A stretch of 49,565 bases of DNA, counting the filler, from Jimgerdemannia flammicorona (lineage: Eukaryota): the NCBI GenBank assembly GCA_003990765.1. It is 2 parts of 2 records of this genome, joined end to end, with 100 filler letters (N's around TTAATTAATTAA, not from the genome) between each part and the next. Parts side by side here need not be neighbours in the genome. Positions count along the whole stretch, not along the records: positions 1 to 24,735 come from RBNJ01000934.1; 1 more part is not named here. The stretch is one strand, 5' to 3'. Under the pieces are notes generated by a model, which did not search any database, was not told the DNA's origin, and worked only from the letters and a program-made list of their open reading frames with translations. The position numbers were made by a program, and so were the translations under genes. Positions 11,141-31,100 of this stretch are shown one piece after another. Within the stretch, counting starts at the first letter, position 1, and each line of letters starts with the position of its first letter.

Positions 11141-12620
11141 TAGGGCTGGCAGAGGAAAAGGGCATCAATGACCTGCTATTGTTCATACTTAGATATGATA
11201 GCTAGATCTGGTGGAGTAGGGTGGAGGTAGACCACAACTGCTGCAGTGACCTGTTAAATGAATTCAGTCTGTTCAGCCAAAGTGGCATGTTGTTGGTATT
11301 GTTGTTGAAGTTGTTCATCATTCATAGTAAAAGAAGGTGATTGGTGGGTTGAAAAAAGAAGGTGAACTGCCAAGCTTTCAAAATGGCTAAAGAGACTCTA
11401 CAGGAGTCAAGAGGTTCCTTTAATTGGGACTAATGTCTTACAAGATGCCTCAAACACATATGACTGATGAACATGTAGATTTAACACATAAATCATGTCT
11501 AAGACACTACAAATAAAGCACGCCATTGCCTTAGAGATGGCAGAAACCAACTCTGAAACAGTCCGGAACAAAGCGACGCTTAGTCGTTTATTCGTGACGT
11601 ATAACTGGTACGTTACATCTCTTATTTGTGACGTATTACTCGTAACGCCACTTATTTGTGACGCATCATCCGGAGCGTATCTTTACAACTGACGCCATAC
11701 CGATGTCGCGGTCCATCTTGTATAATAAATGTATGTTTATCATCACACATAAACTGCTCAAACAATATTCACAATCATTGAATCTCCCTTTCGTTGATCT
11801 CAAACATATCTCGTTCTTCGTTTATATTAGTTGGTTCGTGTGCATCTTTATGTGTGGCTAGCGACTAAATATATATGATTGATACTTTAGAGAATCACTC
11901 TGTTTCCAACAGCGTATTGAGTTCTACAACGGAAACATTGCCGTTTCATGGAGTTCGATGAATGAATTCGTGCATCACCGTCTAATCATTAGACTCCTTC
12001 GACATAACATATGTACCGTCGTATGCAAAACACTACCATGAGCTCCGATATATTTTAATTTATTTTACGATCTACGTTATGAAAGGTCGGTGGGTTGAGC
12101 CTATCTTTTATGCCGTTTTAAAGGGGAATTCATTGATTGGCTTGTGAAGTCATTTCACTATATTCATTATATATACATCTGGCACTACGTCTTATCTCAA
12201 CCAGCTGTAATCGGGGTTGGTGCAGTGTTCATTACGCTCTTTTTGGCCATATTTTTCTTTTATTCTGCGGATTACTCTCAAAAATAGCATCTTAACACAC
12301 ATGGTTATACATGCAGTAACAATCACCATAATTTTGTCGAAGCCTGGCGTCCGGACACCATTTCATTGTGATAAACGTCAAACTTGCCCCCCAAGACGAT
12401 TAAAAGGTTATCTACACTGTGGATATTCAAACTTGGCGATTTAACCCGTCAAAAAAATTCCAACACTTAAGAGTGACAAAAAAAAAAAAAAAAAGACTCG
12501 CGCAATCAATGGACTCCCTCGTGCAGGAGCACACATTTTCATGCAAAGCAGTTCTGCATTTTTGACAGAGTATAGCCTGTGAGAAAATTTGCACCGAAAA
12601 TATTGCTGAAATAGCGCTGC

Positions 12621-13491
12621 CTACACCAATTGCTTACTGCGCATTGGCACATATGGCGGAGGAGGTGGTGGCTCAGAATGTACTGGTTTTCGGTAACAGC
12701 AATAAATGATACCGCCGATGGTGAGCACGACGACGACGAGACTCAAAAAAATACCGACGATCATGCCGGTGTTGGTGGTCGCAACGTAAACGATGCTCTG
12801 GGTGTTATTGTTTTCCGTGTCGGCAGCAGCCACACCCATGGTGGTAGTGACGTAGACTGTGAGAACTTGTGTGGTGGCCTGCGGGCAATTGCCGAACGTC
12901 GAGCTGGGTGTCGAAGTTGGCGCGACTGAAGCTGGCAAACTGTAGTTGCCGCATTTTAGGACAGGCCATGTTAAGTCAGTCTGGCCAAGTAGGGAAAACG
13001 GAGGCGAGGCGGGAGTAAGTTGGTGTATATATATGGATCAGAAGACGTGAAGTGATTATGGACATACTCACAGGTGGAATGCTGTAGCAATAAAGACATA
13101 AGTTGACATTGTTGACCCACGCTTAGGCGCAGGCCCCCGTCGTAGGACAGGGGGCGATATTATTCTTGCAGATATTGATAACGTTGGCAGGTACAGGAGT
13201 CGTCGGGAAATGGTAGGTGTCGAAGTCGTCATATTGGCCCGGGTTGCCGCATGCCAAAATAGCGTATCGGTGGACATCCTGGAAAGGGCAAGAAAGACTG
13301 TAAGTAAGTTGGTTAATCGTACGTTAGACACGGTTAAATGTTATGCGGATACTCACGGAAGTCAATCCAGCGCAGTAAAAACATGTCGCGGCGTTTATAA
13401 GCCAATTTCTATAATAATCACAGTTACCGACGGCGCCGGTGCCAACAATCTTGCAAGCGTTTTGGTATCCGTTACAGGAGGCAACGCTCAT
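12621..13491 (-). pseudogene. Paralog 1 of the Cys-repeat single-TM protein, premature stop at codon 97
   Basis: Exons 13491-13357, 13278-13072, 12980-12621; introns GTGAGT..CAG of 78 and 91 bp; would give 233 aa, but CAA>TAA at 13123-13125; TM MIVGIFLSLVVVVLTIGGIIY, tail PPPPPPYVPMRSKQLV. Confidence 0.8.
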
Positions 13492-15153
13492 GGTGAATAT
13501 TGGAAAGGTGTGGCAAAGATTCCTTGCAACATGAGTTCGTTTTAAATTTTTCCCATAAACCCCCGATCCACGGTACGATAAACAGTGTCCAGGGTACGCA
13601 ATACTCATTTCAACGCCGACCTCTTGAGCTCTTTGAGTCGATAACGTAACATTCGTTATTTTACAGATTCTGTTTGTTTCAAGCTTCAACGGAAATTCCT
13701 ATTTCTTACCGTTGTGTTCATTCAAGGCACGGTGCACACCTAAAGAATGTCCCGTGTAACTTCCGCTTTTGCTATGCATGGTCGGGAATCTAAAAATGGG
13801 TATCGCTTCCTAAATTCAACCTGGGCCCTCTACAATGCCAACGACGGTCACAGAGAATCTAAGCTGGCGAGCTCAGAACATCCCTTTCCGCTATGCCACG
13901 TTTCAGCTTGTATATTGTTATTATTGTTATTCAAATGCCTATCTATTATACGAGTCCTTGTGTCACGTAATAAGTGCTTCCAAAATATTCCCATACAAAA
14001 GTGCCCAAGATGGAATTTTCGATACTCAAAAGCATCCAAATTCCCAGAGCCCCTGCAGGATGCTGACCATGTCGGATGTGCCGGTTGAGTTATTGTTTCT
14101 TCGACAAACGGTCAATAGGTGCCCGGGTTAGTGTAAATAAAGGAATCTATCAAATCTGGCAATCGTTCCCTCAATCTCGCATTGGCCCACACATTGATGT
14201 TCGAAAAAGCTCTGACGTTGGGCGTCAATCAAATCTTGCATAACTTGTCATTTTTCCTACTCTCACGCTATCATTAATGACAAGTTCATTGACACCACAC
14301 TGCGCTTTTAACAGACAGATGAGCGAGTTTTTCACACTACCACGCCAGGATACAGATTGCAGGTTGTACAATGGAAGGTAGTGCCGTTTCATACAACCTT
14401 GCTCTTTTTGACTATTTCCGATGAATTAGACTCTTTGACGTAAAAAATTTCCGTCAAATGCAAAACAAGCGACTGGTTACATCATGGGTTCCGATGTAAT
14501 TACAATATATGTGAATGGAATAACGTAATTGGTCAGCGTGCTGACTTGGTACGGGTGAGCCTATCTCAGTATGGCGCTGTCACTGACTGAAATAGGTCTG
14601 CCAGCCGATCACAACCTTGCGGGCTCTGATCTCTACGCATATATTCATTGTGTGTAGGTGTATTTTATCACATTTCTAGTCGTTTCAGATGGGATTGATT
14701 GAGAGTTGGTGACAACATTTGGGTATATTCATTATATATTCTGGCACTATGTCTCATCTCGAAAAGCTGTTGTCGGAGTTGGGGCGGTGTTCATTACGCT
14801 CTTCATCGCCATATCTTGTCACGCATGGTCATCATTACAGTAACGATCGTTGTGATGATGCCGTCGAAGCATGGCGTCTGGGCAATTTTTTTTTTGCGAT
14901 AATTCCCTAAGGCAATTAAGAGGTTATCTACACTATAGTTATTCAAACTTGATTATTGACCATTCAAAAATATTCCAACACTTAAGAACGAAAACGTTCG
15001 CACAATTAATGAACTCTCTTGTGCAGGAGCACAAATTTTATGTTTAACAGTTTTATGTTTAACAGTTCTGCAGTTTTGACAGAGTATTGAGTTGTGGCAG
15101 TTCCATAACCTTTGCGAACGTTCGCACCAAACGTAATGCTGAAATAGTGCTGC

Positions 15154-16098
15154 CTACACCAATTGCTTGCTGCGACTTGGCGTATACGGTGGAGGTGATG
15201 GTGACGGTGACGGTGACGGTCGTTGAATATAGTAAACAACACAGATGACGATAGCCACGGCGGCGACGACACCTACGACAATACCGATGATCATGCCGGT
15301 ATTGTTATTGGTGGTGATGTAAACGTTCTGGTTGTTATTGTTATTATTCGTGTCGCCGTTGGGCACACCCTTGGTGGCGGTGGGCGTTATGTAGACGATG
15401 AGAATTGATGTGGCCTGCGGGCTGTTTCCAGGATTTTGAGCGCTTAGCGTGTAGTCGATGGACGTGGTGGGCGTGGTGGACGTGATGGACGTGATGGACG
15501 TGATAGAGCTGGGCGTTTGAACGGGCGCGATTTGACCGGGCAAGCTGTAGTTGCCGCATTTTAGGACAGCCCACGTTAAATCAGTCTGGCCATGTACGGG
15601 AAACGGAGGCGAGGGGGGAGTGAGTTGATGAAGCATATAGATCAGAATATATGATGAATTGATTTTAGACATACTCACAGGTGGAATACTGTAGCAATAA
15701 AGACATAAGTTGACATTGGTGACCCACGCTTGCGCGCAGGGCCCCGTCGCAGGACAGGGGGCGATGTTATTCTTGCAGATGTTGATAACGTCGGCGGGTA
15801 CAGGAGTCGTCGAGAAATGGTAGGTGGCGAAGTCGTCATATTGGCTCGGGTTGCCGCATGCCAAGATAGCGTATTGGTGGACATCCTGGAAAGGGCAAGA
15901 AAGACTGTAAGCAAGTTGGTTAATTGTACGTTAGACATGGTTAAATGTTATGCGGATACTCACGGAAGTCAATCCAGCGCAGTAAAAACATGTCGCGGTG
16001 TTTATAAGCCAAGTTCTATAATAATCACAGTTACCGACGGCGCCGGTGCCAACAATCTTGCAAGCGTTTTGGTATCCGTTACAGGAGGTAACGCTCAT
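15154..16098 (-). CDS. Paralog 2, intact 257-aa membrane protein: two 6-Cys repeats, Ser/Thr/Asn stalk, TM helix, PPxY tail
   Basis: Exons 16098-15964, 15885-15679, 15585-15154; phase-0 GTGAGT..CAG introns of 78 and 93 bp; start context TTCACCATG; no internal stop; ends MIIGIVVGVVAAVAIVICVVYY-IQRPSPSPSPSPPPYTPSRSKQLV. Confidence 0.85.
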
Positions 16099-16689
16099 GG
16101 TGAATATTGAAAAGGTGTGACGAAGAATCTTGGGACGTGAGTTCGTTTTAAATTTTTCCAACAGGAAATGTGTACTACTGTCAAATGCGGTCATAATCCC
16201 GATCCACAGTTCAATAAACCATCTCAACGCTGACCTCTTGAGCTATTTGAGTTGATAACGTAACATTCGTTATTCTACAGATTCTATTTGTTTCAAGCCT
16301 CAACGGAAATTCCTATTTCTTGCCGTTGCGGTCATTCAAGCTCGGTGCACGCCTAAAGAATGTCCCGTGTTACTTCCGCTTTTGCTCTGCTTGGCCGGGA
16401 ATCTAAAAATGGATATCGCATTCTAAATTTCACCTGAGCACGTTAGGCGCCAATCAAATCTGGAGGAGGCTAAACATTACTTATCATTTTCACTGACGTC
16501 GCACACCCTTTAAACAGACAGATGAGCGAGTTTTTCATGCGGCCTTGCTCCTTTTGACTATTTCCGACGAATTAGACTCCATTCGACATGAAAAATGTAC
16601 CGTCCTATGCAAAACGAGGGACTGGTTGTATCATGGGTTTAATATATATTACGATCTACCTTGTATGGAATAATGATAATGTACTGGTC

Positions 16690-17238
16690 CCTCACCATGC
16701 TGAAATCTCCTAACGTCCTTTTCACATGGTTGGATCCCTACATGGTCATATGGCTGGGCATGTGACTTAAAGATCATCCAGCCACGTTACATAAAAAAAC
16801 ACGATCCAAAAAAACACCATGATGCTATAGACCACCCCCTACTTGAGGCAAAATTCATCAATAATATACTGTTTAAATAAATACTGGTACAACATTTCTG
16901 AGCACAAGCATAACTTGTGCCATATAGTATTAAGCAACATGAAATTCACGAAATAGTTCTTGCAAAATTGCATGTCCTCGCGAAATCGCACACCTTCACG
17001 AAATTGCCACGTCACGAAATTGCCAAACCACGTTCTATCTCAGAAGCATGCTGTCGTGAAATCACCACGTCCTGTCTTAGAAGTATACATCCGTCACGAA
17101 CTCACCACGCCTTGTCTTAGAAGTATACATCCAGTTGTATAGTAACTGAATAAAAATTGGTTTGTACTCGGTAACATCAACTAAATTTAACATACACAAA
17201 TAGGCAGGTGGAACTGAATTTCGCGCCGGCATAGTAAA
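16690..17238. mobile_element. ~550-bp insertion unique to the third repeat unit, possibly a non-autonomous DNA transposon
   Basis: The previous unit reads GTAATTGGTCAGCGTGCTG (~14525); here TGGTC appears at both 16685-16689 and 17239-17243 around unrelated sequence with internal repeats (CACGAAATTGCC, CTTAGAAGTATACATCC x2). Terminal inverted similarity is weak. Confidence 0.4.
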
Positions 17239-17882
17239 TGGTCAGCGTGCTGAATAGACACGGTATGGCGCTGGCACTAATTGAAATAGGTCTGCTGGCT
17301 GTTCACAGCCTTGCGGGCTCTGATCTCTACGGCTATATTCAATATTTATAGGTATAATGTATCCGTTTCAGATGGGAATCCATTAGTTGCCACGTAGTGA
17401 GTTTTTGACGACATTTGAATGTATTCATTATATATATTCATGTTTTTCTTTACTTAGATTCTGCGAATTACGCTTAAAGGCCGAAGAATCTTAACGCGCT
17501 TGGTCACCCATGCAGTGACGAGCATTACAATGTGGTCGTCGAAGCATGGCGTCCGGACAAAATTATATTCAAAATTTCTCTCAAGAGAATTAATGTGTCA
17601 TCTACACTACCATTATCCAAACTTGATGATATGACCTTAAAAAAAAATTCAACACTTAGAGAGCGAAGAAACTCACATAATAAATAATCTACCTTGTGCA
17701 GTAGCACACATTTTTATGTAAAGCAGCTCTGCAATTTTGACAGGGTATCGAGTTGTTGCAGTTTCATGCCTGCGAGAACATTCGCACCAAACGTAACGCT
17801 GAAATTGCACCGCTTACATTTATTGCTTGCTGCGTTTTGACGTATACCGTGGAAAATGTGATTCAGGATATTGGGAACAACA

Positions 17883-18635
17883 TTAAATTTTACCGCCAAT
17901 GATGGCTAAGGCGACGATGACACCCACGACAATACCGACGATCATGGTGGGTTTGGTGTTGGTGTTGTTAGAAAAATTCTGGTTGTTGTTGTTCGTGTTG
18001 CCGCTGCTCACACCTTTGGTGGTTGACATGTAGACCGTGGTCTTGCTGAACGCCGGAGTTGGCGCAATTTGACCCGGCAAGCTGTAGTTTCCGCATTGCA
18101 GGACAGCCCACGTTAAGTCAGTCTGGCCAAGTACGGGAAACGGAGGCGAGGCGGGAATGAGTTGATGAAGTATATAGAGCAGAAGACGTGATGACGTGAT
18201 TTGGGACATACTCACAGGTGGAATACTGTAACAATAAAGACATAAGTTGACATTGGTGACCCACGCTTGCGCGCAGGGCCCCGTCGTAGGACAGGGGGAG
18301 ATATTATTCTTGCAGATGTTAATAACGTCGGCGGGTACGGGAGTTGTCGAGAAATGGTAGGTGTCGAAGTCGTCATATTGGCCCGGGGCGCCGCATGCCA
18401 AGATAGCGTATCGGTGGACATCCTGGAAAGGGCAAGAAAGACTGTAAGCAAGTTGGTTAATTGTACGTTAGACACGGTTAAATGTTATGCGGATACTTAC
18501 GGAAGTCAATCCAGCGCAGTAAAAACATGTAGCGGCGTTTATAAGCCAACTTCTATAATAGTCACAGTTACCGACTTCGCGGGTGCCAACAATCTTGCAA
18601 GCGTTTTGGTATCCGTCGCAGGAGGTAACGCTCAT
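17883..18635 (-). CDS. Paralog 3, 193 aa, stop right after the TM helix (no cytosolic tail)
   Basis: Exons 18635-18501, 18422-18216, 18122-17883; introns 78 bp (GTAAGT) and 93 bp; ends ALAIIGGKI*; the same frame continues as relic tail CCSQYPESHFPRYTSKRSKQ*. Confidence 0.75.
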
Positions 18636-19666
18636 GGTGAATATTGAAAAGGTGTGGCGAAGATTCCTTGGGCGTGAGTTCGTTTTTAAATTTTTCCAAC
18701 AGGAAATGTGTGCCAACGTCAACCGTCAAATGCGGAAATAAACCCGATCCACGGTGCAATAAACAGCGTCCAGGTATGCAATACTCATTTCAACGCCTCT
18801 TGAGCTATTTGAGTCGATAACGTAACATTCGTTATTTTACAGATTCACGGAAATCCCTATTTCTTGCCGTTGCCGTCATTCAAAAGAATGGCGCGAATTT
18901 CTCGGTAACTTCCGCTTTTGCTCTGCATGGTCGGGAGTCTAAAAATGGATAAATTCCACCATCAAATCTGGCGAGCTCAGATCATCCCTTTACTGCGTCT
19001 CATTTTATGTGGACCCACATACCATGTTTCTGGGGAAATTTTCTGGGTGTTAGTCAGGACAAACTATTTTTAGATAATCGAGCACTTAGTAAACCCACAC
19101 ACAATTGACAGTCTATTGCCAAATGCTTGTTGTTCCGCCTATCTCATATACGAAACTGACGGAGACATTACTAACGCCTCCTAAATATTCCCATGCACAA
19201 TTTGGAATTTTCGGCACTCAAACCATCCAAGACACCAGAGCCCCGGCCCATGTCGGCTGGGTCATTGTTTCTTCGGCAAACGGTCATTAAGTACGTAAAC
19301 AGAGGAAGCTGTCAAATTTAGCAATTACGCCTACACTATAGACATCTGCCATTACTCAACTCGCATTGGATTTTTTTACGGCGCCCACACATCGATGCCC
19401 GAAATAGCGCAGGGTTTCCTTGCATTACAACATTTAGAGGTTGAATGTTGCCCGCTATAAATAATATGAGGAATATCTCCCGAAATTTATTCAATGCAAC
19501 AACATCTATTTTTTCACTATCTGTTCCACAGGGCCTGGTAATCTCGTCCAGTCTTTGCGCAATTGCCTGTGTTCAATCGAGTTATTTTATTCTTCTGATA
19601 TTAGTACACGCGGGTGCGCAGATATATCATCAGTCATGTGATTATGTAGCATAGGTCGAAGACGAC

Positions 19667-24735: not shown

Positions 24736-24835
24736 NNNNNNNNNNNNNNNNNNNNNNNNNNNNNNNNNNNNNNNNNNNNTTAATTAATTAANNNNNNNNN
24801 NNNNNNNNNNNNNNNNNNNNNNNNNNNNNNNNNNN
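24736..24835. other. Assembly gap with artificial six-frame-stop linker
   Basis: 44 N + TTAATTAATTAA (24780-24791) + 44 N. Confidence 0.95.
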
Positions 24836-25190: not shown

Positions 25191-28100
25191 CTAGTTGTTC
25201 AAGAAATCATATTCCTGAACTAGGTCGGTAGCATTCTGGAGATTGGTCTTAGGTTCTCAGGTTGCATCATGGATCAGATAACCTTTCCATTTGACAAGGT
25301 ACTCAGGGTGGTTCTTGTTGCCACATTTGTTGATGATCTGCTCAACTTCATACTCTTCTTAGTTATTAATAATAACAGGTGTAGGTGATTCAGTGGTCCA
25401 GTTGGGGAATAGCTCATCATTATTCTCATTGTATCACTTGAGATGTTGAACGTTAAAGACTGGGTGAATCTTAATGGTGTCTGGTAGTGCCAATTTGTAG
25501 GAGGTTGGAGAGACTTGTATAATGACTTCAAATGGTCCAATGAACTTGCTGTTCAGCTTTGTAGATGGTCTGTACTTGAGGTTGTCAACTCGGTATCCTC
25601 TGATGTCCAGTAGAACTTTTTCTCCAATATCAAAGGTTTCTTCTTGGTGGTATTGGTTAATATACTGTGACTGTTGTTCTTGAGCTCATGATAAATTCTC
25701 AATTGCAATCTGGCTTAGATTATACATTCGGAGTAGGAATTCTTCAATAGCTTTGACTGTGGAGGGTTCTTCAGTGGTACAGATAAGTGTTAAAGGGGTG
25801 TTTGGGTTTTGTCCAGTGTTGGCGAAGAATGGGGTCATTCCAAGAGAGGCTTGCTTGCTATTGTTATAGGCAAACTCAACTGCAGTAAGGTGTTCATGCC
25901 AGTCATCTTGTTTGTAGGAAACATAGTTCCTTAGTATTTGTTCCAGAGTTCAGTTCATTCTTTCAGTTTAGCCATTAGTTTCTAGGTGAAAGGCTGTGGA
26001 TAGTGCAAGTTTTGTTCCAAGGTGTGCATGGAGGGCTTTCCAAAAATGGCTGGTGAATTTTGGATCTCGGTCACTAACAATGATCTTAGGAAGACCATGA
26101 TAGTGGAAGATGTTGTCAAACAAGAGTGTGGCTATGTCTGGTGCTGTTGCAGTAGTGGTAGTTAGTACAAAGTGGGCTTGTTTGCTGAAATAATCCACAA
26201 AGACAACAATTGCATCTTTCCCATTCTTGATTTGGGGTAGTTGTACAATGAAGTCCATAGAGATTTGTTCCCAATTAGCAGATGGTACTGAGATAGGGTG
26301 AAGTAAGCTAGGTTTTGCTAGTGTTGAGAACTTATTTTGTTGGCAGGCATTACAGGAAGTGATGTAGGTCTTGAGCTAATCTGCCATGCGGGGCCAATAG
26401 AAGTTTCGGGAGATAACTTTGTAAAATTTATCAAATCCTAAATGTCCAGCTGTAGGGGCATCATGACATTCGAATAGGATAGTCCTTCAGAGGTCTCAGT
26501 TGTTTGGGACATACAGTCTATCTTTGTAGTAGATAGAGTTGTCCTTGAGTTGGTATTGATTGTACTGGGTATACTTGTCAGCATCATCACTGTTCAGGAT
26601 TTCTCAGAGTGCTTGAGCTTCCTTATCATCAACACATACTGCAATGACTTGTTCCATGATGGAGTTTGTAACCAAGGTGAGAGTTTGGATAACCTCTTCG
26701 ATTGGTGGTCTGGAGATTGCATTGGCAACAATATTTTCCTTGCCAGGGTGGTACTGGATTTTGTAATCAAAGTTGGTAAGGACTTTCATCCATCTGGCTT
26801 GCTTTCGAGAAAGGGTAGCCTGTGTCTTAATATTGACTAATGATTTGTAGTCAGTCAATATGGTGAAGTGTACTCCTTCTAGGTAGGGTCACCATTTGAT
26901 CAGAGTATCTACAATAGCTAGTATTTCCTTCTTATGAGTTGCATAGTTAATTTCGGCATCATTGAACTTGTGGGAGTGATAGGCAACAGAGTGTCCTTCT
27001 TGCATGAGCACTGCTCCAAGGGCTAGGTCAGAGGCATCAGTAGTGACTTTATAGGGTAGTGCTGGGTTTGCTGCTTGAAGTACTGGAGTGGTTATCAGGG
27101 TATCCTTTAGTGCTTGAAAGGCAGTATCTTGCTCAGGTCCCCAAGTTACAAGATTATTGAAGTCTTTCTCTTGTTTTATGGTCCAGGGTTGTTCTTGTTT
27201 CTTGCTGTACTTGGTTATTTGGGTGAGGGCAGTAGCAATTTTAGCAAAGTTGGCAACAAATTGCCTGTAATAGTTTGCTAATCCCAGGAATGACTAGAGG
27301 TCTTTTAGCTTCTTGGGTCTGGGCCAATCCTTGATTGCAGAGATTTTGCTGGGGTCTACTTTGATTCTATTTGGAGTGACAATGTATTCAAGAAATTGAA
27401 TTTCTTTCAGGAGAAATTTTCACTTGCTGAGTTTTGCAAAGAGTCAGTTTTCTCGGAGTTTCAATAGTACTAGTTCAAGGTATTCAAGATATTCCTCCAG
27501 GGTTTTGCTGAAGACTAGGATGTCATCAATGTAGACAACAACAAATTTGTCCAGGTATGGATGCAGAATGGTATTCATCAGTGTCTGGAAGGTTGCTGGA
27601 GCATTAGTTAAGCCAAAGGGCATAACCAGGAACTCGAAGTATCCATAGCGAGTTCGGAAAGCTGTCTTGTAGATGTCTTCTTCTTTTATAGCAATTTGCC
27701 AATAGCCATTTCGTAGGTCAAAAGAGCTCATGAATTGTGAGTTGGTAAACCTATCGAATATTTCATCGATCCTTGGTAGTGAGCAACAGTTCTTGATGGT
27801 CTGTTCATTGAGATTATAGTAGTCAATACACATTCACAGGTCTCCTCCTTTCTTGACAACAAAGAGGACTGGTGCACCATAGGGTGATACACTGGGTCTG
27901 ATGAATCCTTATTCTAGGAGTTCGTCGATTTCCTTCTTGAGTGCATCAATTTCTCTTGGAGACATGTGGTAGATTGACTTGAAGGCTGGTTTGGCATCTG
28001 GGATAGTCTTGATAGTATGGTTTACTGCTTATTTGAGAGGTAGGCCTTTCGAGAGCTTCTTTGGAAATATGTCCCGGAATTTCTGGAGTAGTGGTCTGAC

Positions 28101-31100
28101 ATGACTGTTAACTTTGGAGAAATCTTCTTCAGAGTTCTTGGGTTCTCCTTTGGATGGATGGATGGAGATGGCGAAGAGAGGGCATTTCTTGGCCAATTTC
28201 TTGAGTTGTAGTTTGTTGATGTGGGTGATCTTTGGTCCAGGTCACTAGAATTAAGTGGGTCCTTTTTGCCTTGCAGTTTGAAGTTGTGGCATCCTTTCTT
28301 GATGGTCAGAGAATGGTTTACCCAATCGATCATAGGGTTCTCTTGTTTTAACCACAGGGTTCCAAGAATGATTTCGTTGTCAGGGAGTGGTACAAATTGA
28401 AGAGTAACATATACTCAGTAGTCACTAATTCGGAAAGGTAGATTGTGGACTTCTTTGCTAATAACATGTGAGGTTCCATCAGCTAGAGCAACTACTTGAG
28501 TTTGCTATACTGGGGAGGTAAAGACCTTGAGTCTATTGGCTATCTCTTCATTGATGAAGTTGCCTGAGGCACTACTGTCTATTATAATCTTGACAGGTGC
28601 TCCATTGACAAAAGCCTTAAGGGTGAGCAGTTTGTCTGATCCAATGGTGGTGATTTCAGTTGTAGGAGCTTTCCTTCTGTTGGTTCTTCTTTGAGCCAGT
28701 TCATTGATACAAGAGAAGTAATCATCAATCATTCAGGAAGAGTACATTCCAATGCCATGAGGGCATCAGCCACTTGGTACATATCCATCTTCAATCTTCT
28801 TGTAGAATTGTTCTTCTTTGCTCATAGTATGTTGGGCTGGGGCCTTGTTCAATGAGCCAAATCCTTTGGATCCTCGGATGGTGGGCAGTAATTCAGGGAC
28901 TTCCTTAACTGTCAGGGTTGACTCAATTTTTTCGAATAGGATCTGGGCGATGCAGAAGCCAATAGGGATCTTGAAGGGTATCCAACTGTGGTTTCGAATG
29001 AGGATAATGATTTTGCCTATGTAATCTTCATCAATGACTCCTCCTTCTACTGAGAGTCCTTTCAGTGCCAGGCTGCTGCAACAGCATATTCTTCCAACAT
29101 GTCCTTTAGGGATTTGGATACTAATTCCTGTGTAGACTTGTTTGACTTCTCGGTTGGAAACTGTAGCTTCTTCAGCTGTATATAGATCATATCCAGCTGC
29201 TTTCTGACTTTCTTTGATTGGGGCCTTAGTAGTTTGTCTTAACTTGACAAAGTCTAGTATTCTGGTGGTCAGGTTGTTGAGGTGGTGTAGTGTGGTAACA
29301 GTTGCTCATATTGCTGTTCGGGGTTTTCAGTTAGGGCAGGCACTGGCCATGTGTCCTGTCTTTCGGCAATAGAAGCATGCTTTGCTTCTTCGAAGTTCAT
29401 TCCTTTTGACTTCAGTAAGTTTCTTAAAGGTACTTGGCTGGGTGGGTTCATGATTTCTGGGTGTCCAAGAGGTGGATGTGGAGAAAGCTCGAGATGCTTC
29501 ATGCTTGGGTTCTTCTTTCTTTGTCCAAGTCTTTTCCTTGTTGTTGAATTGCCTTCAGGGCAGAATTGGTCCAGCTGTTAGAATTCACTTAACCATAGTC
29601 TTGATTCTTGCCAGGCACCATTGTTGGTGATCACAACCAACTGGACAGCCTTGTTCTTGGATTTTTCTAGTAAGCCATTCAGGCAGGACATCGAATAAGT
29701 GGTCTGCTCTTGTACCATTTCATGCTTCATCATTGGCAATGTATCCTAGGCCAATAGTGTTCAGAAGTAACTCGAGTTTTGTACAGAAGGTTTCGAATTC
29801 TTCTTTGCTATATATATTGAATTTGAGGCTGTGGAGTTTTACTTGAGATTCAGCAATCATGGTTTTGCTGCAGTATTGAGCAATCATGAGTTGTTTGAGT
29901 CCAGGGGCTGCAGGGTGGACTCCATATCCTGGGGCATTGTTTGCTGCATTCTGAGCAACTACTGTAGGTCGGGTATCCCATGTGAGGGGTTTTTCAGGAA
30001 GGGTTCACCACCATTCTTCAGTAGGTCTTCGGAAGAATGTAACAACTTGGCGGACATAGGCTGTAGTGGTAGCAAAGAGTTGTTCTAGAGTGTGGTCTTG
30101 ATTGTTTGTCAGAATGTGGTCAGTAACTCGCTCATTAGTCTATTGATTGGCTTCGAAGTTGGTGTCAACTATACTAATGAAGCTTTGGACTTCTTGTATA
30201 GTACCATTAAAGGTAGGTAGACTCAGATTTTTGGTAGGTCAGGTCTGTTCAGCTAAGGCAGTAATGGTTGCTACCATTATGGCTACCTGGGCTGTGAGGT
30301 CAAGAATCTGTTAGTTCACCATATTGTTTACTGGAGGTGGTTGGACTGCTGGTAGTGGTGTTACTAGTACTACTTGAGGTACTGGTGTAGTGTATGATAG
30401 AGTTCTTTGGGTCTGTGTAAGTTGCTGGAGTAGTAGTTGTAGATCTGGAGTAAGGGCTTGATAGATAGCTGTTTGTTGTTATGTAGGTGTATTCTGTCCT
30501 GATGGGAGTGCATCTCTTTTGGTGGTGTATCTGGGATCAAATTCAGTGAGATACTCCTCCTCTTCTTCGGCTTGGTCCTTGTGTAATTGGGTTTGCTTGG
30601 CATCAAAGTAGATAGAATCAGTTGTATATCTTATTTCAGATGGACTTAATTCAAAGTCAAGTCCAGGTTTGGTATTGGTTTCAGATTCAGGTAGGGCTGT
30701 AGCAGGGTCTGCTTCAGGTTCAGGGTTAGGTAGTTGATGAAGGGTTTCTCTTGCTTCTTCTTTAAGAATATGGCAGGCCTTGCTGTTCTGGAACCAGTAG
30801 TATAATGCAGTCTTGGTCCTGGTATGGTGAAAATCAGTAGAGTTGAGCTACTTAGCTATAGAGGCTTGGGCTTTGTGAGGGACTAAGGCTAGAAAGACTG
30901 CTGCTGGTTGTCCTAGGTCACTCGGATTTGTGGAGCTGACAAAACTCTTATTGAGAAGAGTAAAGAAGGCTTCAATAAGACCTTCTTCGTCTTGACTTGC
31001 TGGGTATAGTGCAAGGAGTTCAGTGAATAGGGTTTCGCCTATTTGTTGGTTTAATTGGAGTACTTCTTTCTTTGAATGAAGTTTGTCCCACTTGTTGCAG

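Follow-up and report, generated by a model that had tools for sequence, protein, structure and literature searches.

Positions 15154 to 16098 of a 49,565-nucleotide stretch of the Jimgerdemannia flammicorona assembly GCA_003990765.1 (hereafter the window; filler is included, and runs of N occupy 24736-24779 and 24792-24835, 88 bases in total) raise the question of whether they encode a genuine gene for a new kind of surface protein and on which side of the membrane its cysteine-rich head would lie. A preliminary description had read from these positions, after splicing, a receptor-like protein with a duplicated six-cysteine module, a mucin-like stalk, one transmembrane (TM) helix and a short tail. 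The gene, called copy B here, was modelled as follows.

16098-15154, minus strand: copy B gene, with three exons (16098-15964, 15885-15679 and 15585-15154) and a 257-aa product
15964..16098, minus strand: exon 1, 135 nt, 45 codons beginning at the ATG at 16098-16096, with the first five cysteines of module 1 (from translation and an RNA contig)
15886..15963, minus strand: intron 1, 78 nt, GT..AG, phase 0, five codons past CFYC, absent from the RNA contig
15679..15885, minus strand: exon 2, 207 nt, 69 codons, with the end of module 1 (ACGN), a linker and the first five cysteines of module 2
15586..15678, minus strand: intron 2, 93 nt, GT..AG, phase 0, five codons past CLYC, absent from the RNA contig
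15154..15585, minus strand: exon 3, 143 codons and a TAG stop (15156-15154), with the end of module 2, the stalk, the TM helix and the tail

The exon translations (45, 69 and 143 aa) sum to the 257-aa product. Both introns have GTGAGTAT at the 5′ end and CAG at the 3′ end, GTGAGT opening intron 1 at 15963 and likewise intron 2. The public run X1 was compared over positions 12000-19500, where it gave two contigs, one on copy B and one on copy C, a tandem paralog, but none on a further paralog, A, or on the spacers, which is uninformative. The contig on copy B, 905 letters over 16105-15030, omits exactly 15586-15678 and 15886-15963 and otherwise shows zero differences, with exon-wise pieces at about 16105-15963, 15884-15679 and 15585-15030. 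The label of this run, 'RNA?', is a guess, and processed RNA is shown by its spliced contig. Both predicted GT..AG introns were thus removed at the predicted junctions, and copy B is a genuine gene that is expressed and spliced correctly and encodes a small membrane protein with one TM pass. The contig ends inside a 38-nt stretch that is identical in copies B and C and therefore does not define the 5′ end.

Intron 2 is open in frame in copies B (15586-15678) and C (18123-18215), where it is 93 nt long, and it is 91 nt long in a third copy, A. Its retention would lengthen the loop that separates CxYC from CGN by 31 residues; only the spliced form is present in the RNA contigs.

The only word-indexed protein match was a 216-aa hypothetical protein of J. 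flammicorona (P0005) with the UniRef name 'Mid2 domain-containing'. Word-indexed searches returned this same mis-modelled protein each time, as 1 of 749 and 1 of 96 candidates (exon 1 alignment, longer proteins: 0 of 35). The 128 residues at its C-terminus match exon 3 exactly, residues 1-87 are a +1 frame of exon 2, and exon 1 is left out. The public model starts at an ATG inside intron 1 (15938-15936) and joins exon 3 at another acceptor, 15545. As this ATG is GTG in both paralogs and is spliced out in the RNA contig, the expectation that naive annotation would mis-model the gene is borne out. With the wrong frame and a missing exon in the public model, the family is invisible to proteome-based surveys.

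The spliced product is organized into the following parts.

15850..16083, minus strand: module 1, residues 6-57, interrupted by intron 1 (regular-expression match)
15550..15777, minus strand: module 2, residues 82-126, interrupted by intron 2 (regular-expression match)
15298..15549, minus strand: S/T/N-rich stalk, residues 127-210, with sequons at N126 and N208 (by composition)
15229..15297, minus strand: TM helix, residues 211-233, with a Kyte-Doolittle 19-residue mean of 3.33 (at residue 213)
15157..15228, minus strand: C-terminal tail, 24 residues (234-257), with PPPY at 245-248 (15184-15195) and the end RSKQLV

The pattern proposed earlier, C-x6-C-x(5-10)-C-x(3-5)-W-x6-C-[FL]-Y-C-x14-C-G-N, was matched twice in the spliced protein by a regular expression, at residues 6-57 and 82-126, and the claimed stalk, TM and PPxY-tail architecture is likewise present in the 257-aa translation. 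The cysteines of the copy B protein lie at positions 6, 13, 24, 37, 40 and 55 and at 82, 89, 95, 106, 109 and 124, with C229 in the TM. In both modules, CGN follows CxYC at the x14 distance only once the intron has been removed. At least one match to the cysteine spacing alone occurred in 60 of 200000 shuffles of residues 1-130.

Exons 1 and 2 align to each other in BLASTP with an E-value of 4e-4 and 12 identities in 37 positions. Both BLASTP and MAFFT pair C13 of module 1 (N-A-C-K) with C82 of module 2 (N-I-C-K) rather than C6 with C82, so the correspondence of the C-x6-C element between the repeats is ambiguous; five of the six cysteines align between the modules in either register, leaving only the sixth of ambiguous homology. 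The two modules, now diverged, arose by internal duplication with the intron copied along. From the earlier claim of an 'ancient internal duplication', the duplication with matching intron positions was upheld, but the event is not callable 'ancient' for a family known from a single species.

Downstream of the modules, Ser, Thr and Asn make up 45% of residues 131-204, and the stalk is the most divergent region among the paralogs, with many indels of S/T-rich units. A PPxY motif, which would make the protein a candidate substrate or adaptor of Rsp5/Nedd4 ligases, lies at 245-248 and is present in paralog A too. PPPY.P.RSKQLV is kept between copies A and B, in an exon 3 that is 31% different overall, and this conservation points to a recognised linear motif.

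A local tblastn of the window detected two further copies, A and C, with copy B in the middle and the sole intact one of the three. The array occupies roughly 12.1-19.3 kb, with a repeat unit of ~2.55 kb.

12621..13491, minus strand: paralog A, exon-intron structure as in copy B, with an in-frame TAA at 13125-13123 within module 2
17883..18635, minus strand: paralog C, structure as in copy B, with a TAA at 17885-17883 just past the TM and decayed tail remnants

The TAA of paralog A (13125-13123) is codon 97 and replaces a Gln codon. Paralog C is transcribed, as a 262-letter contig of run X1 covers 17870-18122; nine loose letters of this contig equal the exon 2 end of C, so that intron 2 of C is spliced in the same way. 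Exons 1 and 2 have equal lengths in A, B and C. Divergence among the copies was distributed as follows.

Exon 1: 2-7%
Intron 1: 2.6-3.8%
Exon 2: 6-8%
Intron 2: 13-18%
Exon 3: 25-31%, with many indels

The three copies retain every one of the 12 head cysteines as well as the Trp residues. Over 390 nt of the head in the three paralogs, dN/dS (Nei-Gojobori) was 0.21-0.32 in the frame of the gene versus 0.57-0.92 and 0.97-3.2 in the other frames. The head is under purifying selection, and in this frame only. As a separate observation, intron 1 (15886-15963 in B, 13279-13356 in A and 18423-18500 in C) differs between paralogs at only 2-3 of its 78 bases, while the exons on either side have a dS of 0.13-0.24. 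This low divergence could be due either to gene conversion or to a functional element within the intron.

With premature stops in two of its three copies, the family may be in decay. It could be a young orphan family that is transcribed and was recently constrained but serves no lasting function, its copies disappearing one after another from a repeat-rich region, and the restriction of its relatives to one species and the surroundings of the array would fit such a history. The window has a G+C content of 38% and is gene-poor, Pfam matches having been obtained in 4 of the 23 long ORFs scanned, and it contains a degenerate retroelement.

25968-29305, minus strand: degenerate LTR-retroelement pol region in separate ORFs, with integrase core, RNase H, reverse transcriptase and dUTPase (Pfam)

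Set against this are the low dN/dS of the head, the retained cysteines and Trp residues, the tail motif conserved between A and B, and copy B itself, which is intact, spliced and better covered in the RNA contigs than copy C. We therefore regard a decaying orphan as quite unlikely. Fungal genomes commonly encode lineage-specific cysteine-rich proteins that are secreted or membrane-bound, and only one of the three copies here is unbroken.

We then asked whether the protein has relatives. In all of the database queries, the module was either split by an exon boundary or interrupted by a translated intron, which lowered search sensitivity. In Pfam (hmmscan, E-value up to 10), 0 families were matched by exon 1 and 0 by exon 2, each of which holds split modules, and exon 3 gave only sub-threshold matches in the TM region. 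Among the latter, Mid2 (PF04478) matched residues 70-120 of exon 3, in the stalk and TM, with an E-value of 0.007 and 16.6 bits, below the cut-off of 23.2. The WSC domain (PF01822), which has eight conserved cysteines, was unmatched at E-values up to 10 by the exons or by the read-through of exons 2 and 3 (modules split or interrupted). CFEM (PF05730), hydrophobin, LysM and CBM18 were unmatched at the same limit in four queries, again with modules split or interrupted, and so were Opy2 (PF09463) and the zinc-finger families in the Pfam search.

Beyond Pfam, a 116-aa read-through (exon 2, intron 2 and the start of exon 3) was used. With phmmer, it gave 2 matches at E-values up to 0.001 among 1.84 billion protein representatives; we judged both spurious, as each is a long protein with internal repeats and one of them was aligned within the translated intron. 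The same query had 0 matches among PDB sequences at E-values up to 10. In metagenome contigs, 411 pattern matches for exon 2 and 103 for the exon 1 alignment were obtained, of which 0 were confirmed. The ESM Atlas search with exons 2 and 3 returned no score of at least 0.9; the best score for exon 2 was 0.85, to an unnamed cluster, and those for exon 3 were 0.75-0.76, to mucin-15 and Mid2 clusters, all of which we treat as leads only. AlphaFold2 models were unusable both for the 116-aa read-through (mean pLDDT 38.1) and for an 82-aa read-through of module 2 supplied with an alignment of 9 rows built from pieces of paralogs and modules (pLDDT 38.4). Literature searches on J. flammicorona and on Opy2 contained nothing on this protein among the matches listed. 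The cysteine spacing, described beforehand as lying outside CFEM, WSC, hydrophobin, LysM and CBM18, thus corresponds to no described family at the sensitivity reachable with Pfam, phmmer and PDB. Judged from these searches, the gene appears to be restricted to the lineage of Jimgerdemannia (Endogonales, Mucoromycota), without detectable relatives.

We compared the architecture of copy B with those of known membrane proteins. In Wsc proteins, a cysteine-rich head is followed by an S/T-rich spacer, a single TM and a short tail in the cytoplasm, and copy B has the same order of parts as the Wsc1-type cell-wall integrity sensors (PF01822). It differs from them in having six cysteines per module in another spacing, a duplicated head, no signal peptide and a 24-residue PPxY tail, whereas the Wsc1-type tail is longer and binds Rom2. 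With Mid2/Mtl1 (PF04478) it shares an S/T-rich region followed by a TM, and the weak sub-threshold profile and Atlas matches; the profile match, however, is confined to the stalk and TM, and Mid2 has no cysteine-rich head but does have a signal peptide, which the copy B protein lacks, and a long tail. Opy2 (PF09463), a yeast osmosensing membrane anchor, resembles copy B in its small cysteine-rich domain, which in Opy2 is extracellular, its Ser-rich region and its single TM and is said to lack a cleavable signal sequence, but its cysteine pattern is another one, its Pfam profile was unmatched, and its cytosolic tail is long, so that co-translational targeting is possible for Opy2. By analogy, the copy B protein would at best work like the Wsc/Mid2/Opy2 kind without being a member of it, and may be best regarded as a lineage-restricted variant of a Wsc/Mid2-style architecture.

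Where the head lies relative to the membrane is the main point on which the possible readings differ. The absence of a signal peptide and the nearness of the TM to the C-terminus, neither of which the preliminary description mentioned, bear on it. The N-terminus of the copy B protein reads MSVTSC, and its best N-terminal Kyte-Doolittle 19-residue mean is 0.35; no hydrophobic N-terminal segment was found in the protein with 19-residue windows and thus no signal peptide. The single TM, at residues 211-233 of 257, is followed by only 24 residues, and tail-anchored proteins have their TM within ~30 residues of the C-terminus, so that both features of this class are present. In a tail-anchored protein, the N-terminal domain stays cytosolic. 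Applied to copy B, this would mean post-translational insertion by a GET/EMC-type route, a cytosolic head, perhaps metal-binding, with a cytosolic S/T/N linker, and a PPPY tail in the lumen or outside. The C-terminal TM of tail-anchored proteins acts as the targeting signal for post-translational targeting by GET3, as described in PMC8745461. In addition to the missing N-terminal signal and the very hydrophobic TM of copy B, the transcribed paralog C ends four residues (GGKI) past its hydrophobic stretch, the classic shape of a tail anchor.

The composition of the head is at odds with a cytosolic location. Residues 1-126 contain 12 Cys, 11 Asn, 13 Thr and 9 Tyr but 0 Glu and, with 3 Lys and 1 Arg, only four basic residues of these two types, which is atypical of a cytosolic domain and argues for one of extracellular type. 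Each module has a single CxxC pair and lacks a conserved His, unlike usual zinc knuckles, and zinc-finger families were unmatched at E-values up to 10 (modules split or interrupted). The 15 residues preceding the TM carry no charge, and R236, R252 and K254 follow it, the positive charges being on the C-terminal side. Moreover, the conserved PPPY.P.RSKQLV has no known lumenal reader. Although copy B resembles tail-anchored proteins in lacking a signal peptide and in its single hydrophobic TM near the C-terminus, head composition, charges and conserved PPxY tail thus fit the opposite orientation better, and we consider a tail-anchored protein possible but doubtful.

Our preferred reading, which we hold at about even probability, is an outward-facing head in a surface protein of the Wsc/Mid2/Opy2 style. 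It is preferred because of the head composition, the one CxxC per module, the indel-prone S/T spacer, the positive charges after the TM and the conserved PPxY tail, and the weak likeness of the stalk and TM to Mid2 is in its favour. The preliminary description had proposed a disulfide-rich ectodomain on a surface sensor or adhesin turned over via Rsp5; the gene model, the duplication and the order of parts are supported here, whereas the ectodomain, the sensor or adhesin role and the turnover by Rsp5 stay proposals. Here we infer topology, disulfides, glycosylation, Rsp5 binding and a surface function: the head and spacer would enter the ER lumen and end up at the cell surface, the 12 head cysteines would form disulfides and the spacer would be glycosylated. 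The tail would face the cytosol, where WW domains are located, and an Rsp5/Nedd4-type ligase recruited by PPPY could drive endocytic turnover of the protein. As a signal peptide is absent, the TM would have to serve as an N-out signal-anchor. In this respect, the protein would be like the type I signal-anchor (type III) proteins, such as synaptotagmin II, which are N-out without a signal peptide and have positive residues past the TM; according to PMC2175286, positive residues after the hydrophobic region keep the N-out topology. The N-domain in that paper is 60 residues long. In such proteins the N-domain is short and the TM is followed by a long cytosolic part, whereas 210 residues precede the TM and 24 follow it here.

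Features that count against an outward head are the lack of a signal peptide, or of a conserved signal-peptide exon in the 1.6 kb upstream, the position of the TM 24 residues from the C-terminus, and the premature stops in two of the three copies. Given the length of the ribosome tunnel, such a TM would still be largely inside the ribosome at termination, and co-translational targeting by SRP is therefore unlikely. We know of no precedent for a 210-residue N-domain being translocated by a signal-anchor so near the C-terminus. A bolder version of the outward reading, to which we give a low but real probability, is that the head is a new disulfide-rich fold that reaches the surface without a signal peptide by being pulled across after synthesis by the signal-anchor 24 residues from the C-terminus. 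Since the head could not fold before its disulfides form, it could stay translocation-competent until then. Such a pull-across, if true, would be a topogenesis outside the current scheme of type I, type III and tail-anchored proteins.

If the head faces outward, it would represent a new cysteine-rich surface module in Endogonales, an early-diverging, plant-symbiotic fungal order in which, to our knowledge, almost no surface proteins have been studied. Copy B would then also be a natural test case for a long N-terminal domain crossing the ER membrane without a signal peptide and with a TM near the C-terminus.

If an unseen 5′ exon encoded a signal peptide, copy B would be an ordinary type I membrane protein, in keeping with an architecture otherwise like that of signal-peptide-bearing fungal sensors; the RNA contig, which stops at 16105, is silent on the 5′ end. 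About 40 nt 5′ of the ATG, copies B and C have AACTCAC (ACTCAT in A) followed by CAAG, and the frame is open from CAAG onward to the ATG in copy B. The 1.6 kb preceding each copy was scanned for peptides that start with ATG and contain a hydrophobic window of 9 residues. Copies A and C yielded 0 candidates each, and copy B yielded 2, which have no counterpart in the scans of A and C. The start context of copy B is strong (CACC ATG, with A at -3), the position from CAAG to the ATG shifts by one base between B and C, and an upstream ATG of B is missing in A and C. A hidden signal-peptide exon is, on this evidence, very unlikely.

Several minor features of the upstream region were also recorded. 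The additional in-frame ATG of copy B (16194 region, minus strand) lies 32 codons 5′ of the main start and opens a non-hydrophobic extension; it falls within a stretch that is deleted in A and is not ATG in C. A 1-nt indel upstream of the main ATG was considered as proof of a non-coding leader, and this argument was weakened by a three-way alignment in which B and C have equal length. The upstream AACTCAC, located with CAAG at 16120-16145 and at the same place in A and C, is identical to the putative branch site of intron 2, and the element could be the 3′ end of a 5′-UTR intron.
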